This document shows, in pieces, positions 8,609-62,906 of a stretch of 64,000 bases of DNA. The DNA lies in the IMG/VR virus record IMGVR_UViG_3300010163_000014, positions 26,237 through 90,236 of that record, one strand, 5' to 3'. Position 1 is the first letter of the stretch. Each line of letters starts with the position of its first letter. A program made the translations under genes and the position numbers. The notes under the pieces are model-generated. The model saw only the letters and a program-made list of their open reading frames with translations, made no database searches and was not told the origin of the DNA. This stretch comes from a virus (Duplodnaviria; Caudoviricetes).

Positions 8609-9011
8609 CTGCCAAATGAGGGAATTGTCTAATCAAATTATTGATAATTTGATTGACTCGATCAAAGTCATCTCCAAGAGCTTTACTAACAGGGAAGTTG
8701 AATCCTTCTTCCCCCTCTTTGAAGTAATCCTTCAAAAGATTATCAAGGACATAGATATCCATATCCATGGATGATTTTAACTGATTCCAAGCATACTCTG
8801 GATTAAAAGATGCAATAAAGGCAACGATAGGTGCAACTTTACCCATGACATTGCACTGAGGCCAAGGCATTGAGTTGAAGGGATGTTGTTTGGAATATTC
8901 ATCCCTAATCCAGATACAGTGCTTCCGAGTCATCTCTTTGATTCTGGGATTATCCTGAGCAATATAGGTCTCTTCCATAAAGATAAGGACTCCTTTCAAA
9001 AAGATTAACAT
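8592..9011 (-). CDS. Hypothetical protein (probable start 8978, MEETY)
   Basis: AAAGGAG RBS before 8978; operon context. Confidence 0.65.
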   Translation of the reverse strand: MLIFLKGVLIFMEETYIAQDNPRIKEMTRKHCIWIRDEYSKQHPFNSMPWPQCNVMGKVAPIVAFIASFNPEYAWNQLKSSMDMDIYVLDNLLKDYFKEGEEGFNFPVSKALGDDFDRVNQIINNLIRQFPHLADVQDQ

Positions 9012-9020
9012 TGATGTTTA

Positions 9021-9061
9021 AAGGGGAGGGTGGATTTTGACTCCACCCTCCCCTTCTTTTT
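9021..9061. terminator. Intrinsic terminator
   Basis: AAGGGGAGGGTGGA/TCCACCCTCCCCTT. Confidence 0.8.
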
Positions 9062-9659
9062 AATTCTTATCGAGCTTATACTTCTTGGCGATCTTCGGGA
9101 TCCTCATTCGGAGAGTATCCATCTTCTTATCCTTCAGGTCTTTTGTCAGGAGCTTCTTATTCTCCCTCAGTTCAGACTCAGACCTGATGAACGGGAACTC
9201 CACATCCATGAGCTTATAGAAATGCTCCAGGATAGCATCTCCCATGACCCGATATACCTTCTTCGGGACCACAATGAAGATATTCCTTTGCTTGTCATAG
9301 CTCCCGGAGGCATTGGGAGAGATCTCCATGGTGAACCCCTTTACCGCAGATAGCATCGCAGCGATCACTTCAGGACTGTTGAAGTAATCCTCCAACATAT
9401 CCTGAGTTTTCCAGCTATACCGGGGCTTCTCACCCTTTTCCATATTCTCCTGCTCTTTGGCCATGGCACTGAGCAGACGATTATGGGGTGTGAATGCCCC
9501 ATTTACAACACAGTTGTTATACTTCCCGGCGATATTTCCCTTCGCCGCATCATCATCAATGGATCCAGCATCACATCCATCGATGATGACATAGTCACGG
9601 ACCTTCAGCCATTGCTTGGCATACTTATCGAATCCCTTTGTAGAGACCAGGAACATCAT
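9060..9659 (-). CDS. Hypothetical protein (199 aa)
   Basis: ORF within the minus-strand operon. Confidence 0.7.
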   Translation of the reverse strand: MMFLVSTKGFDKYAKQWLKVRDYVIIDGCDAGSIDDDAAKGNIAGKYNNCVVNGAFTPHNRLLSAMAKEQENMEKGEKPRYSWKTQDMLEDYFNSPEVIAAMLSAVKGFTMEISPNASGSYDKQRNIFIVVPKKVYRVMGDAILEHFYKLMDVEFPFIRSESELRENKKLLTKDLKDKKMDTLRMRIPKIAKKYKLDKN

Positions 9660-9675
9660 GACTTACTTACCCCTT

Positions 9676-10545
9676 TCAATCTACATATAGCTTGGCAATT
9701 GCCTGCTCCAGCTTTCTAAAGTCAATTCCATCCAACCCATTGATCCTCTGAAGAATTTCATCTTCTTTTTCCATGATTGTCATATCCATTCGTCTAAAGA
9801 TCTCCACCGGAGTATACTCCAGACGACATTGAGCATTCTCACACCTGAATTTGGTGAAAGACGGATTCCATTCAATCTTTGCACCACATGTCGGACATCT
9901 AAATAGATCTCTCGACTGACCTAATAGAGGATACATATATCCATAATCCAGAATGATTAAATCTCTCGGAACTCCATCACCAAACTGATTCGTTCTCTTT
10001 ACTGCTATATCTTCACCCTCTGGGATTCGATAGCCCCAGTTACAAAAGTTTTTCGCGATAAATCCAATATCATTAAACAGATAAGATTCAGCTAGACCAG
10101 CCAGAATTGTCTTGATATTTGCTTCTTGATTTAGAAAGTCTGGTTTAGTCATGATATCAACACATTCGGAGATGTTTATCATCAGATTTGTTTCATACGT
10201 TTTAGCCAATAAATGAGGAAGTTCTTGACTTCTTTTGAATTCGACGTAGTTGTCCTGGTAGCCTCTGCGATCCAATGCAATCTTAATGGCAAATCCATTA
10301 TGCATCAGAGTGATTCGATTTGTACCAGTTCCTAACTCTATGAAGTCAGGCGGAGGGAGTATTTTAGTAATGATACTCGCCTTTTGATTGTTGTCCGGAA
10401 GATCAGGTCTCAGACTGTGCAGAAATAATGTTTTCAGAGTTTTCTGATCAAAGAAATGATTGGTTAGACTATCGGGTCTCTGATCACTTAATTTAGCTGA
10501 TACCTCAGCATTTGCATTAGCAAAGAACGGGACAAACGATGCCAT
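9676..10545 (-). CDS. Protein kinase-like protein with C-terminal zinc ribbon
   Basis: Gly-loop LGTGTNR; beta3 AIKIA; alphaC Glu (QDNYVE); catalytic-loop-like DIGFIAKN; DFG-like LDYG; CPTC...CENAQC. Confidence 0.7.
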   Translation of the reverse strand: MASFVPFFANANAEVSAKLSDQRPDSLTNHFFDQKTLKTLFLHSLRPDLPDNNQKASIITKILPPPDFIELGTGTNRITLMHNGFAIKIALDRRGYQDNYVEFKRSQELPHLLAKTYETNLMINISECVDIMTKPDFLNQEANIKTILAGLAESYLFNDIGFIAKNFCNWGYRIPEGEDIAVKRTNQFGDGVPRDLIILDYGYMYPLLGQSRDLFRCPTCGAKIEWNPSFTKFRCENAQCRLEYTPVEIFRRMDMTIMEKEDEILQRINGLDGIDFRKLEQAIAKLYVD

Positions 10546-56370: not shown

Positions 56371-57096
56371 ATGAAACTAGTAGAAATACTACATAACATG
56401 GAGTGCTATTGCCAGTTGCAGATTTCACCTAAAGACTACAGTCATGATCCGCTGTTAAGGCCATCCTTTTCTGAGAAGATCAAGTTAATTATTGAAGTCT
56501 ATCATCTGGATCAACTAATCAGCACTATCTATATTAATCCTATGTCAGACTCGGTTGCAAATATCCCGGCTGAATACCTCCAATATGATGTGGAAAAAAT
56601 GATCAGTGTTGCGGATGAGAGAAACCCCACAATAACGATTGTTATCCGCAAATCAGTTCCTGATAAAACCATTGGTCAAATGATTCAAACAGCATTTGAC
56701 CATATTACATCATATGGGTATACAGAGCAACTGCAAGCAATTCAAGATAATCCGGATCTTAGTGCATATCATCATATTTATATTTCCGTAACCTCATTCT
56801 ATTCTATGAAGTATATTGATTCCTTATCATTCTATGGTATCAGTGGTCCCAGTTGGATGTATTACTATCCTAAAGAGTACAATCATGTCAAAGGTGGATT
56901 TGTCTGGTATAAATATCGTCAAAATGGAATGATCTATGAATGTGCTGTACATGTTGCTGATGAATGTAATCAGTATTTGTCTGATGATGATGTCAAGTAC
57001 ATGAAACGGAAGTATCTTTTTAATACCAGAATAAAACCGGAAAGAGAGTATATCTTTAAATATCGTTTCAGAAAGAAGGATCAAAAACATGAATGA
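56371..57096 (+). CDS. Hypothetical protein (241 aa)
   Basis: GGAGG RBS. Confidence 0.65.
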   Translation: MKLVEILHNMECYCQLQISPKDYSHDPLLRPSFSEKIKLIIEVYHLDQLISTIYINPMSDSVANIPAEYLQYDVEKMISVADERNPTITIVIRKSVPDKTIGQMIQTAFDHITSYGYTEQLQAIQDNPDLSAYHHIYISVTSFYSMKYIDSLSFYGISGPSWMYYYPKEYNHVKGGFVWYKYRQNGMIYECAVHVADECNQYLSDDDVKYMKRKYLFNTRIKPEREYIFKYRFRKKDQKHE

Positions 57097-57328
57097 TTCA
57101 TCTATATTTGGAGGATTCCGAAGAGGGTATGAATACTCTGAATTTCTTCCGAAATGCTTGGACTCTGACCTCAATTGTCTCTATAAGCTCAATGGAAGAT
57201 GCTGCATTAATGCTGCTAATAAAATCTATCCGGATAAAGTTCCCTGTCTTCCTCTTGCAAATAAAATCGCATTTCCAAATGCAATCAATATCGCAGATCT
57301 GATGGGATATGATGGGAGTGTTGGATAA
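57089..57328 (+). CDS. Small Cys-containing protein; paralog of the next gene
   Basis: MN....FGGF...C...C.Y..N.RCC. Confidence 0.6.
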   Translation: MNDSSIFGGFRRGYEYSEFLPKCLDSDLNCLYKLNGRCCINAANKIYPDKVPCLPLANKIAFPNAINIADLMGYDGSVG

Positions 57329-57329
57329 C

Positions 57330-57560
57330 ATGAATGAACCAGCCATGTTTGGAGGGTTTCAAGCTGGAAAAGATGAATGCTCTGAACATACTTTTCAGTG
57401 TGACGGTTACGGTAGCTGTGCTGGATGCATCTATAATATCAATGACCGATGCTGTTATAATGTAGCCAAAATTCAAATTCGTATATCAAGAGCCTGCTAT
57501 GAGGAACTCAGACAAAATGAAATTGAGGATGAGCTCGATTATTTGGAGGGGATGGGGTAA
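57330..57560 (+). CDS. Small Cys-containing protein; paralog of the previous gene
   Basis: MNEPAMFGGF...C...C..C.Y..NDRCC; start placed at 57330. Confidence 0.6.
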   Translation: MNEPAMFGGFQAGKDECSEHTFQCDGYGSCAGCIYNINDRCCYNVAKIQIRISRACYEELRQNEIEDELDYLEGMG

Positions 57561-58229: not shown

Positions 58230-58496
58230 ATGGCTTCTACTAGTAAAACCACTCAGCTAGGTTTAAATCAATGGGCAGAAAACGATGTTGTCCGTATGGA
58301 AGACTTCAATTCGGATAATAAGAAGATCGATGATGCCTTTAAGAATCTTCAGACTGATATCTGGGCTGCTGGTACCGCTCCTCCTGCTAATAAGAAACTT
58401 TTGTGGATTGACACCACTCCAGTTTCTGGAGGTCTAAAATACTATAATGGATCCGCGTGGGTTAATGTGCCTGTCGCATTTACTACGCCGTCCTAA
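58230..58496 (+). CDS. Tail-fibre-like mini-protein
   Basis: MAST.KT..LGLNQW...D.V..EDFN.DN.KID.A (fibre N-terminal anchor type) plus APP....LWIDT...LKYYNG..W, a module shared with the 19267 and 20814 fibres. Confidence 0.6.
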   Translation: MASTSKTTQLGLNQWAENDVVRMEDFNSDNKKIDDAFKNLQTDIWAAGTAPPANKKLLWIDTTPVSGGLKYYNGSAWVNVPVAFTTPS

Positions 58497-58524
58497 TAAA
58501 AACATATTAAGGAGAGATTTAACT

Positions 58525-58890
58525 ATGAGCAAGAATACACGTACTGCTGAATTCGAGATTACCAATGATCTACGGGACTACATTGAGTCCCTCCAGTATG
58601 AGACCAATGCCCGTAAGGACCTTCTGGCATTTATGCTGGAGCGTGGTCAGGGAGAGACTGAGGGGTTCAAGAAGTACCACACCGAGTATATTGAGTATTC
58701 TACCCAGTATGAGATGGCCAAGGCCCAGATCACCAATGAATATGTTATTCCCAAGTATGGTAAGAACGCGAGCTGGAATCTGGATTTCAAGACCGCCACT
58801 GTGACTGTCACCTACACGGAGCAGACTCCTGAAGTTACTGGTTGTAGCTGTGGTTGCTGCTCTCAGGGAGATGCCAAGACGGATGAGTAA
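58525..58890 (+). CDS. Small accessory protein of the CXXX-repeat radical SAM system (TIGR04116-like)
   Basis: AAGGAG RBS; helical body ending in SWNLDFKTATVTV, resembling the W.I.F.T..I end of that family; C-terminal GCSCGCC. Confidence 0.5.
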   Translation: MSKNTRTAEFEITNDLRDYIESLQYETNARKDLLAFMLERGQGETEGFKKYHTEYIEYSTQYEMAKAQITNEYVIPKYGKNASWNLDFKTATVTVTYTEQTPEVTGCSCGCCSQGDAKTDE

Positions 58891-60277
58891 AAAGCCAATT
58901 GCAATCAATAACAATTACGAGGAACCCTTTCACGACTATTTGCATCGGTTATTTGGCACAGAATATGCCGAACCCATGCATGTCGGTGGTAATCATGTCC
59001 GTGATATCACCATTCAAGTGACGGAAGCCTGTAATCTCTGCTGTACCTATTGCTATCAGCATGATAAAACTCCTGCTGTTCTTGATCTAGAGACCGGTAA
59101 GAAGTTTATCGACATGATCTTAGCAAGTGATGAGCGGAGTGAGCAGTACCTTCAGTCTAGAAATTGTGAAGGTGTCATTCTGAATTTCATTGGAGGGGAT
59201 CCTCTACTTGAAATTGATCTCATGGATCAGTTGACGGATTATTTCATTCAAAGAATGATTGATCTGGATCATCCATGGTTGACGAGATATCGGATCTCAG
59301 TGGGCACAAACGGTCTACTGTATTTTGATCCTAAATTCCAAGCATTTATCGAAAAGAATAAGTATCACCTGTCTATCTCTATTACGGTAGATGGTAATAA
59401 GAAACTCCATGATTCTTGTCGAATTGACCATAATGGCAATGGCAGCTATGATCGTGCGATGGCTGCTGTGAAAGATTGGCAGAGCCGAATTGGTGGAGAC
59501 GATCGAGTAGGAACGAAAATCACGATTGCCCCTGGCAATATTGATATTCTATCGGAAGCTCTAATTGAATTTGCGACTGGTACCACTCCCTTCATCAACT
59601 GCAATTGTGTTTATGAAGAGGGTTGGACACTTGAGCATGCCACCAAGCTCTATACTGAGCTGAAAAGAGTTGCCGATTATCTAGTTGAACATGATTTACA
59701 AGATAGTGCCTGGATCTCAATTCTGGATCAGGTATCTGGAATTAAAGCCGAAGGGGAACAGACCTGGTGTGGTGGTAACGGTTTGATGATGGCTCTGGAT
59801 GTCAGAGGTAATATCTACCCCTGTATCCGATATACTCCCTCCTCTATTGGAGGAAAGCAGCCTGACTTCATTATCGGTACTGCTGAGCATGGATTTGGAT
59901 ATACTCCCGAAGAGGCTCAGAGAATTAAGTGCCTATCATGTATTAAGAGGTCCACCCAATGCTCTCAGGAGTGTTTGGATTGCCCCATCTCTATGGGATG
60001 TGGTGACTGTGCTGGATATAGTTATGAGGTTACCGGTAAGATTGGTAGTCGTGTAACATATATCTGTGAGATGCATAAGGCAAGAGTCCTTGCCTCTGTA
60101 TACTACTCCAATATTGCATATCTGAAGAGTGGATTTAAGAGACCTCGTCCTCTATACGTTCCGAAGGAATGGGCTATCCCCATTATTGGAGAAGACGAGT
60201 ATAATATGCTTGTGGCATTGACTGAGAAGAATGCCGAGGCTATTAAAGATTATAATCCGTATAAATATCTCAATTAA
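58883..60277 (+). CDS. Radical SAM/SPASM peptide maturase (CXXX-repeat target family, TIGR04115-like)
   Basis: VTEACNLCCTYCYQ (CxxxCxxC); FIGGDPLL; TNG; SITVDG; SPASM Cys set WCGG...IYPC...C..C.....C..C...C. Confidence 0.9.
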   Translation: MSKKPIAINNNYEEPFHDYLHRLFGTEYAEPMHVGGNHVRDITIQVTEACNLCCTYCYQHDKTPAVLDLETGKKFIDMILASDERSEQYLQSRNCEGVILNFIGGDPLLEIDLMDQLTDYFIQRMIDLDHPWLTRYRISVGTNGLLYFDPKFQAFIEKNKYHLSISITVDGNKKLHDSCRIDHNGNGSYDRAMAAVKDWQSRIGGDDRVGTKITIAPGNIDILSEALIEFATGTTPFINCNCVYEEGWTLEHATKLYTELKRVADYLVEHDLQDSAWISILDQVSGIKAEGEQTWCGGNGLMMALDVRGNIYPCIRYTPSSIGGKQPDFIIGTAEHGFGYTPEEAQRIKCLSCIKRSTQCSQECLDCPISMGCGDCAGYSYEVTGKIGSRVTYICEMHKARVLASVYYSNIAYLKSGFKRPRPLYVPKEWAIPIIGEDEYNMLVALTEKNAEAIKDYNPYKYLN

Positions 60278-60279
60278 AT

Positions 60280-60317
60280 AAAGAAGGTAGTAGGATTTCT
60301 CCTACTACCTTCTTTTT
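60280..60317. terminator. Bidirectional terminator between the radical SAM and Cys-rich genes
   Basis: AAAGAAGGTAGTAGG/CCTACTACCTTCTTT. Confidence 0.85.
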
Positions 60318-60318
60318 A

Positions 60319-61302
60319 TTATTTCTGAGCAGTCCAAGAGCAGTTACTACAACCAGTACTGCCTGCACCCAGGCTTTGACTACTACCACATCCAGCACTA
60401 CAGTTACTACCACATCCAGAACAGCCTCCGGAGCAACCAGAGGAACATTTTCCTCCACATCCAGAGCATCCATTACAAGTACCTTTACAACCCTGACACC
60501 CAGAACAGGTACTATTGCACGCAGCACTACATGTACCAGTGCATCTTCCAGTACATCCAGAAGAGCATCCATCAGCTCCACATGATCCACCGCATCCCAG
60601 GTTACACCATCCTGCACAATCTGCAGTACACGATGAACATCCAGTACAAGAGGTACAAGAGGTACATGAAGTACAATGGTCACCACAATGATCAAAGCAA
60701 TTGCCTGAGCATGAGTAATCACACATATTACCACAATCATCACATGCTCCATCGCAACCACCACATCCAGAGCATCCAGTGCAATCATCACTACATCTAC
60801 CACCACAGGAGCTGCAACCATTATCACAACCACCGCAGCTATCGCAATAAAATGCACAACCGGATCCACAACCAGAACATCCACTACATCCGGTGCAAGA
60901 TGTACAACTGGTACATCCAGTATAGCATCCGTTGAAACATAATCCAGTACAGGATGCCTTACATCCAGTAGCAGCTAGAGTAGATGCATTGGCGGGCTTC
61001 TTGGATAGCTCAGTTACCTTGGCTTCCATCTGCTCAAACTCAACTTCGTCAACCACTCGTTTGCTATCCGGAGGAGTTTCAGCAGTGATTGCATAGAGAG
61101 GAACCACAATCTTATTATGGTACTCTTCAACAACAGTCAGACCATCGGCTGCAGTTCGAGTATAGTCGTATTGAGTCCCACTATATGCTGCAACTGAACC
61201 CTTACTATTTCTTCGGGCACATTCAGCTTTTACTTTAGCTTTCAATTGGTTAAATCTCTCGGGAGAGATAATTTGGTTGGCCAAAAGAATCATTCCTTTC
61301 AT
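60319..61302 (-). CDS. Cys-rich CXX/CXXX-repeat protein, putative radical SAM substrate (probable TTG start at 61284)
   Basis: ~110-aa N-terminal domain followed by ~214 aa with 56 Cys (my count), spaced mainly by 2-3 Gly/Ser/Thr/Asp residues. Confidence 0.85.
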
Positions 61303-61312
61303 GAGACTAAAT

Positions 61313-61324
61313 TAATTCATTGTC
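61313..61324 (-). promoter_or_regulatory. Putative late promoter GACA-N6-TA for the Cys-rich gene
   Basis: GACA ATGAAT TA between the terminator at 61338-61376 and the RBS. Confidence 0.45.
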
Positions 61325-61337
61325 GATTCAATATGAT

Positions 61338-61376
61338 AAAAATGGTGTACTAGGGAATTTCCCTAGTACACCATTT
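61338..61376 (-). terminator. Intrinsic terminator
   Basis: AAATGGTGTACTAGGG/CCCTAGTACACCATTT. Confidence 0.8.
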
Positions 61377-62096: not shown

Positions 62097-62906
62097 ATGC
62101 AAACGATAAATGTGAAACGATCGAGAAAACGGAATGGTATGAGTGAAGTGGAGTTTTCTGTCCATATGAGTAAGTGGGCCAAGGACAACGAGATGGCTAA
62201 GAGATATAAGAAAGACATTAAAGTTGCAATCATTGCTAGTTTACTGGCGCTCCTTGCCAGTGTTTCTAGCATCTCATTCTTTGCCGGTGTGATGATCTGC
62301 CAGCCGAAGAATACTCATGAGATTGCATATGTAGTAGAACCCACCGCAACTCCCATTCCAACCCCTACACCGACTCCGACCCCAACACCTGAGCCTACAC
62401 CAACCCCCACTCCGGAACCTACTCCCGAGCCTGAGCCCACTGAATATCTCCCTGAAGGTTTCAAGTATTTAGACATTCCCCTGAGCAAAGAGCTTCAACT
62501 TCATGCAGCCATGCTCTGTGAGCAGACTGACTGTATGTGGTATTCTCTGATGCTTGGAATCATGAATATTGAGACTGGGGGGACTTTCAGTAATAATCTC
62601 GAGAGCTCTATGGGTGCTCTGGGTATTATGCAAGTAATGCCCGACAATATTCGTGCATTCTGTGCTGAAACTGGATATACTTATGATGAAGTAGTTAACA
62701 ATCCCAAGGTTAATATGATGGCCGGTATTTGGGTTTGGGAACTCGGAGTGCATAACTATTCCAGAACCAACACCGCAGGATATCTGATGCGGTATAATGC
62801 CGGTCCTGGAAATGCAGCTCCTATGATCGAAGCCGGCGTCGTATCGTCCTATGCAAGTACTGTGCTATCCTATGAGGCGATGTATACTCAGATGCTTCAA
62901 AACTAA
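62097..62906 (+). CDS. Membrane-anchored lytic transglycosylase (SLT domain) with Pro/Thr linker
   Basis: TM helix; (PT)n/(PE)n linker; IMNIETGG (catalytic Glu); GALGIMQVMP; N...G; RYNAGPG. Confidence 0.85.
   Translation: MQTINVKRSRKRNGMSEVEFSVHMSKWAKDNEMAKRYKKDIKVAIIASLLALLASVSSISFFAGVMICQPKNTHEIAYVVEPTATPIPTPTPTPTPTPEPTPTPTPEPTPEPEPTEYLPEGFKYLDIPLSKELQLHAAMLCEQTDCMWYSLMLGIMNIETGGTFSNNLESSMGALGIMQVMPDNIRAFCAETGYTYDEVVNNPKVNMMAGIWVWELGVHNYSRTNTAGYLMRYNAGPGNAAPMIEAGVVSSYASTVLSYEAMYTQMLQN

Follow-up and report, generated by a model that had tools for sequence, protein, structure and literature searches.

A 64,000-nucleotide stretch of viral DNA (hereafter the window), which makes up the last 64 kb of the 90-kb IMG/VR virus record IMGVR_UViG_3300010163_000014, encodes a radical S-adenosylmethionine (SAM)/SPASM enzyme, a small helper protein, an 88-residue mini-protein with a tail-fibre motif, and a 327-residue protein ending in a long ladder of regularly spaced cysteines (Cys) [Table 1]. 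Our analysis leans towards these four genes being a single functional cassette, in which the Cys ladder would be stapled by thioethers to yield a probable tail-fibre-associated virion appendage. The CheckV completeness of the record is 36%. Given its gene content (topoisomerase II subunits, a GroEL-like chaperonin, ThyX, a family B DNA polymerase and virion structural proteins) and the existence of a close relative on a 281-kb contig (locus L148 of the set analyzed below), we consider the window to be a fragment of a giant phage genome.

Foremost among the evidence is the family assignment of the enzyme. It matches the NCBIfam model TIGR04115 (“radical SAM peptide maturase, CXXX-repeat target family”) from profile position 2 to 359 of 359 with 378.1 bits (E 5.5e-113), above the curated cut-off of 350 bits, and a six-frame search with the same model gave 378.9 bits. 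The next-best families are PapB (NF047865; 142.1 bits against a cut-off of 340), the SCIFF maturase (TIGR03974; 100.6 bits against 425) and QhpD (98 bits), all of them thioether formers; the PapB and SCIFF cut-offs were not reached, nor was that of the CrpC-like family TIGR04463 (56.3 bits against 525), and the anaerobic sulfatase maturase family scored much lower than the thioether formers. The CX3CX2C motif (C61/C65/C68) and eight further cysteines (C190, C307, C325, C375, C378, C384, C387 and C406), none of which varies among seven aligned sequences, are the predicted radical SAM cluster motif and a full SPASM set for two auxiliary clusters. An earlier reading made from the sequence alone (the sequence-only reading) had recognized both Cys sets and pointed to the CXXX-repeat maturases, and the present results agree with it on both counts. 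As the relatives of the enzyme (PapB, the SCIFF maturase and QhpD) form thioethers, radical thioether formation is the most likely reaction; by homology, we give thioether chemistry on the ladder itself a little better than an even chance.

The closest solved structure is that of CteB (5wgg), which aligns with enzyme residues 49-417 over the radical SAM core and SPASM domain. The alignment begins at CteB residue 95, and about 48 residues are all that precede the core in the phage enzyme. We take the RRE (recognition element of the precursors of RiPPs, peptides that are made on ribosomes and then modified post-translationally) of CteB to lie within its residues 1-94, outside the aligned region. 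With no counterpart of the N-terminal region of CteB in the phage enzyme, the target must be recognized by other means, perhaps through the helper. We note that in two related phage contigs (L014 4738-8283 and L011 4825-7212) the radical SAM genes encode 1181 and 795 residues, a large insertion of intein-like appearance splitting the enzyme.

The presumed substrate is the 327-residue protein encoded on the minus strand at 60319-61302, 56 of whose 57 cysteines fall within the last 215 residues, essentially as the sequence-only reading had counted them, with 30 gaps of the CXXX and 23 of the CXX type. Cys accounts for 26% of the ladder and nearly all of the remainder is Gly, Ser, Thr, Asp, Ala or Asn, the first residue after each Cys being Ser/Thr-rich and the second Gly-rich. 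The domain that precedes the ladder has invariant residues K21, E27, R30, R31, G35, Y45 and G54 and is modeled by AlphaFold2 (AF2) as a helical bundle (mean predicted local distance difference test score, pLDDT, 75), for which Foldseek returned no significant match in the PDB. None of the NCBIfam and Pfam models recognizes the 327-residue protein. The kinship with the TIGR04114 targets that the sequence-only reading had put up for checking was not found: scans with TIGR04114 and TIGR04117 yielded no match even at E 10, to which composition-bias filtering may contribute, and only three weak matches (E 0.009-0.025) were obtained among 12 phage-type targets. A word-indexed homologue search with the N-domain alone likewise returned nothing, while an exhaustive profile search of a 1.84-billion-protein library succeeded, retrieving 601 representative proteins at 50% clustering in which the domain lies nearly always at residue 1 with the ladder behind it. 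By this measure the cassette is frequent, and it occurs in cultured strains, among them Neglectibacter timonensis SN17, Anaerolentibacter hominis CSJ-1, Eubacterium pyruvativorans i6 and Anaerobacterium chartisolvens DSM 27016. Across 131 of the best 150 N-domain matches, namely those with the boundary motif, the spacing was CXXX in 2068 instances and CXX in 553. In three family members (P0018, P0119 and P0038) the ladder is joined to an extra C-terminal globular or carbohydrate-binding module (CBM)-like domain, for which ESM Atlas look-ups provided at best a weak CBM-like lead; such arrangements fit a role of the ladder as a stalk or linker.

The association between enzyme and Cys-rich protein extends well beyond the window. 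The enzyme led to 13 viral loci (39-48% identity), every one of which also encodes a CXX/CXXX-ladder protein of 31 to 122 Cys, and a homologous N-domain of about 110 residues is present in 12 of them; in the remaining one, L012, the ladder stands at the N-terminus and no N-domain match was found. In the viral loci the target gene is followed by a homologous small helper gene and then by the enzyme gene, all on one strand. Hidden Markov models (HMMs) of the four parts were run over 87 loci and the window; 73 of the loci come from bacterial genomes, mostly those of gut Oscillospiraceae, Lachnospiraceae and other Clostridia. The models detected the N-domain in 65 and the helper in 68, and loci that lack them are essentially confined to those with an enzyme of no more than 37% identity. 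Enzyme homologues that failed to co-occur with Cys-rich genes had been named by the sequence-only reading as grounds for abandoning it; co-occurrence turned out to be strong, in every viral locus and in most genome loci. The 281-kb relative L148 shows the same gene order and the same convergent orientation as the window (mini-protein, helper, enzyme, terminator, inverted Cys gene); the mini-proteins of the two phages are 72% identical, the helpers 56%, the enzymes 81% and the targets 71%. Each of the 52 Cys that align between the two targets is conserved, and a third of the X positions differ (96 the same, 48 different). Together these comparisons make it highly probable, and as firm as comparative genomics allows, that the Cys-rich protein is the target of the enzyme. 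A search of the 90-kb record, which represents about 36% of the genome, for TIGR04119, a further partner of the CXXX-repeat system, gave nothing at E 1, and no candidate of about 315 residues lies beside the enzyme in L002-L004, L006-L009 and L011-L014 as judged from open reading frame (ORF) maps only.

A number of side observations concern the reading of the ladder genes themselves. Cys-repeat DNA is open in several frames, and the public gene call in L148 at 8798-9388 (minus strand) is a wrong frame encoding a Val/Ala/Asp-rich protein of 196 residues, the correct Cys-ladder gene being at 8775-9695 (minus strand); with the repeat DNA being open in several frames, Cys-ladder targets may be widely mis-annotated. 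In several Clostridia loci (L020 5329-6333, L030, L031, L039, L040, L045, L046 and L048) an N-domain ORF with 11-19 Cys is directly followed by an ORF with 42-96 Cys and no N-domain, a layout that could reflect two targets, programmed frameshift or read-through, or a repeat assembly error.

The connection of the cassette with tail fibres comes from the mini-protein and from gene order. At its N-terminus the mini-protein is similar to the beginning of a long phage protein, while its C-terminus carries a motif, TAP..LWIDT...G.KY.NG..W (here fibC; invariant residues P52, W59, D61, T62, K70 and W77), with which tail-fibre proteins end. In L003, L006, L007 and L014 it aligns with the ends of the tail-fibre proteins directly upstream of the Cys gene, which upholds the earlier description of the mini-protein as tail-fibre-like. 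The fibC HMM matches in 48 of 88 loci. In related loci the cassette is immediately preceded by genes for PHROG tail-fibre proteins, and in most related phages and prophages the cassette lies directly behind such genes on the same strand, the fibC-bearing gene, of 55 to 974 residues, typically stopping right at the start of the target gene. This last feature suggests that the ancestral order was fibre (or fibre stub), target, helper and enzyme; in the lineage of the window phage, the target gene would then have moved behind the enzyme gene and been inverted. In the window, the 88-residue fibC mini-protein is the sole remaining link to tail fibres. A scan centred on fibC found the target downstream in 47 of 60 viral loci, about 40 of these from one phage family. 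From these data we consider the chances that the target is a part of the virion or fibre to be evenly balanced.

The helper, whose role we infer, was modeled by AF2 (pLDDT 84) as one strand, two long helices, a beta-hairpin and a disordered CSCGCC tail, this C-terminal Cys cluster being confined to the lineage of the window phage. Its homologues in related loci are encoded between the Cys gene and the radical SAM gene. On the relationship with TIGR04116 that the sequence-only reading had proposed to check, the methods differ: hmmscan with this model matched neither the window helper nor eight relatives, and there was no direct NCBIfam match, whereas profile-profile comparison by hhalign of the helper with four TIGR04116-positive proteins identified it as a remote relative over its full length (probability 81%, E 1.2e-5, 90 columns). 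Foldseek found no significant match to the helper model in the PDB, and a wide VIA-align search with it returned only generic helical-hairpin matches (Z 7.7 or less), with no RRE among them. Prediction of a complex between the N-domain and the helper scored 0.00, which gives no verdict either way. One predicted protein of 334 residues, P0009, comprises N-domain, Cys ladder and helper and is a candidate fusion, possibly a gene-calling artefact; if a true fusion, it would provide a link of the Rosetta-stone type between target and helper.

The positions of the cassette and of its immediate surroundings are given in Table 1. The most likely start codons are ATG 58525 for the helper and ATG 58883 for the enzyme, the latter overlapping the helper stop codon. 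The ORFs bear out the sequence-only reading in its account of a three-gene plus-strand unit converging on the minus-strand Cys-rich gene, which lies 42 bp from the enzyme gene with a hairpin in between. They were said to share a bidirectional terminator, and the hairpin does read as a terminator on both strands and is retained in L148 with some stem positions changed. A second hairpin, which separates the Cys-rich gene from its upstream neighbour, suggests that the Cys gene is either transcribed from its own start or under read-through control. That upstream gene had been described as head-protein-like, in keeping with its PHROG match. Finally, the statement that no transporter, peptidase or immunity gene is nearby proved right, the only genes revealed by Pfam within about 5 kb of the cassette being ThyX, DUF7484, SLT, PolB and unknowns.

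Table 1. Features of the cassette and its flanks (positions in the window)
Feature	Position	Strand	Remarks
Mini-protein, 88 aa	58230..58496	+	phrog_33092 residues 1-36 at N-terminus; fibC motif in C-terminal ~40 residues
Helper, 121 aa	58525..58890	+	ORF open from 58447; remote TIGR04116 relative
Radical SAM/SPASM maturase, TIGR04115 family	58883..60277	+	Frame open from GTG 58850
Bidirectional intrinsic-terminator-like hairpin	60280..60315		16-bp stem, T-runs on both strands; between convergent genes
Cysteine ladder, presumed substrate region	60319..60963	-	56 Cys in 215 residues, CXX/CXXX spacing
N-terminal helical domain, ~113 residues, presumed recognition/docking domain	60964..61302	-	Ends in boundary motif C-x3-C-T-G-L-C
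17-bp hairpin	61340..61376		Between Cys-rich gene and its minus-strand upstream gene
Neighbour protein, 180 aa	61380..61922	-	phrog_26909 “virion structural protein”, E 4.6e-7; L148 orthologue 9791-10306

We propose that the TIGR04115-type enzyme and the TIGR04116-like helper would work in the anoxic cytoplasm of the host, where the enzyme may act processively along the cysteine ladder of the 327-residue protein, with the helical N-domain in the place of the leader or twin-arginine translocation (Tat) signal peptide of cellular systems. Radical formation of many short intramolecular thioether rings of the ranthionine or sactionine type, one per CXX/CXXX unit, would turn the ladder into a covalently stapled, redox-insensitive rod or knot, most likely a structural appendage of the virion connected with a tail fibre. 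The stapled protein may dock onto the fibC motif, which in the window phage would be the one carried by the mini-protein. A conceivable rationale for such a modification is that disulfides would be unusable in the reducing cytoplasm and in the anoxic gut, while thioethers would be irreversible staples. The more general notion that phages of anaerobes put a thioether-staple ladder into a dedicated fibre-tip or fibre-accessory protein as a covalent, redox-proof substitute for disulfides is tentative, and we rate it somewhat below an even chance; on this view the ladder, with its variable length (about 20 to 120 Cys), would be a rigid stalk that can be adjusted.

Among known systems, the cassette is most reminiscent of the CXXX-repeat system, which is catalogued (TIGR04115 with TIGR04114/TIGR04117 targets, TIGR04116 and TIGR04119) and uncharacterized. 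Common to both are an enzyme above the TIGR04115 cut-off, a target with a CXXX/CXX ladder, and a helper with the helix-hairpin and C-terminal W-x-(I/L)-x-F-x-T strand motif of TIGR04116. Cellular representatives of this system were found in three Bacteroidaceae loci (L071 6582-10482, L075 6613-11117 and L082 5543-11060), the most distant of our enzyme matches, and consist of a target of about 100 residues with a Tat signal, a TIGR04115 enzyme at 612 bits, TIGR04119 and a TIGR04116 protein of 93 residues. Their targets begin with twin-arginine (RREFFK) signal peptides, one with a lipobox-like site, and the clusters end in TatA and TatC genes, suggesting that the cellular CXXX peptides may be exported folded through the Tat pathway. 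In contrast, the phage target is 327 residues long and has a helical N-domain of about 110 residues instead of a Tat signal peptide, and the phage cassette is tied to tail-fibre genes and has no detectable TIGR04119 partner in the 90-kb record.

The closest experimental precedent is CrpC of Methanococcus voltae, a SPASM enzyme of the TIGR04463 family for which mass spectrometry demonstrated the installation of ranthionine links in CrpA, a Cys-rich protein (PMC13692751, 2026). Its substrate, as is presumed for the phage cassette, is a Cys-rich molecule of protein size that has a recognition region at its N-terminus and repeated Cys motifs in its C-terminal part (PMC13692751). The two systems differ in that CrpC and CrpA are cellular, the enzyme belongs to another family and has its own RRE, and the repeats of CrpA are of the CXXQ/D type, whereas the phage ladder has no such acceptor. 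PapB, the best-scoring characterized family for the phage enzyme after TIGR04115, is described in two reports on PapB/PapA (freyrasin) as closing several small thioether rings between Cys and side chains within a motif that recurs (PMC10739248, PMC9413430). PapA differs from the phage target in being a short peptide with CX3D motifs, Asp in the phage ladder not being positionally conserved. A classical RiPP pathway is likewise set apart from the cassette by the size and predicted folded N-domain of the phage target and by the lack of a protease or transporter within about 5 kb. Literature searches found no publication on TIGR04115 systems or on radical SAM modification of structural proteins by phages. 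The statement of the sequence-only reading that there is no characterized phage example accordingly stands as far as these searches reach, with the qualification that the M. voltae system provides a cellular precedent for protein-scale thioether cross-linking by a SPASM enzyme (PMC13692751).

Several observations weigh against a stapled fibre appendage. Our literature searches found no experimental study of any TIGR04115 member. The cassette of the window is surrounded by ThyX, unknowns, an SLT lysin-like gene and a DNA polymerase gene, with no block of tail genes there, and about 11 independent phage loci have the fibC motif without the cassette. No close homologue was found in the cultured phages of the phage collection searched, a protein search of which gave only three uncultured faecal phage records at 25-37% identity. 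The GACA-N6-TA sequence that the sequence-only reading had taken for a late-type motif of the Cys-rich gene is present at 61313-61324 on the minus strand; with 27 occurrences in the window against 36.6 expected, the pattern is rarer than chance, provides no evidence for a late promoter and was ruled out as uninformative. Finally, no X position of the ladder has a conserved Asp, Glu or Gln acceptor of the kind seen in the CX3D of PapA and the CXXQ/D of CrpA.

Two other interpretations of the cassette were considered. The modified protein may be no part of the virion and instead be released at lysis or act within the infected cell, whether as a large RiPP-like effector, a sponge for metal or sulfide, or a host modulator, encoded by a moron-like accessory cassette. 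We consider this unlikely: the non-tail surroundings in the window, the export suggested for the small Tat-signal peptides of the Bacteroidaceae cousins by the adjacent TatA and TatC genes, and the connection that the authors of the M. voltae study draw between the Crp cluster and iron-sulfur acquisition (PMC13692751) are all in its favor, whereas most related cassettes stand directly behind same-strand tail-fibre genes, the phage targets carry what is modeled as a folded N-domain rather than a signal peptide, some have extra globular or CBM-like domains, and export, protease and immunity genes are missing nearby. Alternatively, the ladder may serve mainly as a metallothionein-like ligand of metal ions or iron-sulfur clusters, the enzyme carrying out a different or limited modification in place of serial thioether stapling, such as one at the boundary motif, a Cys oxidation or an epimerization. 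Its high Cys content, with CXC/CXXC-like spacing in a Gly/Ser-rich background, the missing acidic acceptor, the Cys cluster at the end of the helper and the fact that the first CxxxCTGLC motif is the most conserved part of the ladder would all accommodate metal binding. That the best-scoring characterized relatives of the enzyme all form Cys thioethers, with the anaerobic sulfatase maturase far below them, argues the other way, and the conservation of every ladder Cys between orthologues fits each of them being used, a pattern that metal binding predicts as well; on balance we regard this second alternative as less probable still than the first.

That the adjacency of the genes is fortuitous, or that the Cys-rich frame is not a real gene, is very improbable. 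The repeat is open in several phases and a wrong frame was called in a related contig, as described above; the frame that joins N-domain and ladder is nonetheless conserved in hundreds of representatives and co-occurs with the enzyme in dozens of loci, and conservation within it is specific to Cys. Taken together, conservation across the family, co-occurrence and Cys-specific conservation effectively refute this explanation. Thioether stapling of a ladder with a probable place at the tail fibre is the interpretation towards which we lean.

A few features of the neighborhood of the cassette are recorded here in their own right. An 11-mer, GATAYATTATT, occurs seven times in the window against 0.27 expected (at 123, 11833 on the minus strand, 30594, 47691, 56308, 62028 and 62991). 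The copies that were placed are intergenic and lie shortly upstream of gene starts, for instance those of the topoisomerase and SLT genes, and the element is probably a phage promoter element; neither the radical SAM cassette nor the Cys-rich gene has a copy ahead of it. The SLT gene (62097-62906, plus strand) adjoins the cassette, is kept in the 281-kb relative and encodes a 269-residue protein with a hydrophobic segment at its N-terminus, a linker rich in Pro, Thr and Glu, and an SLT lytic transglycosylase domain. A short distance upstream of the cassette, two adjacent plus-strand genes (57089-57328 and 57309-57560) encode small paralogues of 79 and 83 residues with the common pattern FGGF...C...C.Y..N.RCC.N.A.KI, no family match and no evident tie to the enzyme. 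A DNA-level search of the phage collection gave no match.

If the ladder is indeed stapled and carried on the virion, it would represent a new class of post-translational modification in virus assembly and the first enzyme-installed RiPP-type cross-linking of a protein of the virus particle. It would also provide a radical SAM family, in the catalogues for more than a decade without a function, with a first biological role, and would carry RiPP-type chemistry beyond peptides to structural proteins several hundred residues long. Such a role would explain what antiSMASH-type tools may call “ranthipeptide” clusters in prophages of gut Clostridia, and the serial thioether rings of the ladder would constitute a natural scaffold for protein engineering.

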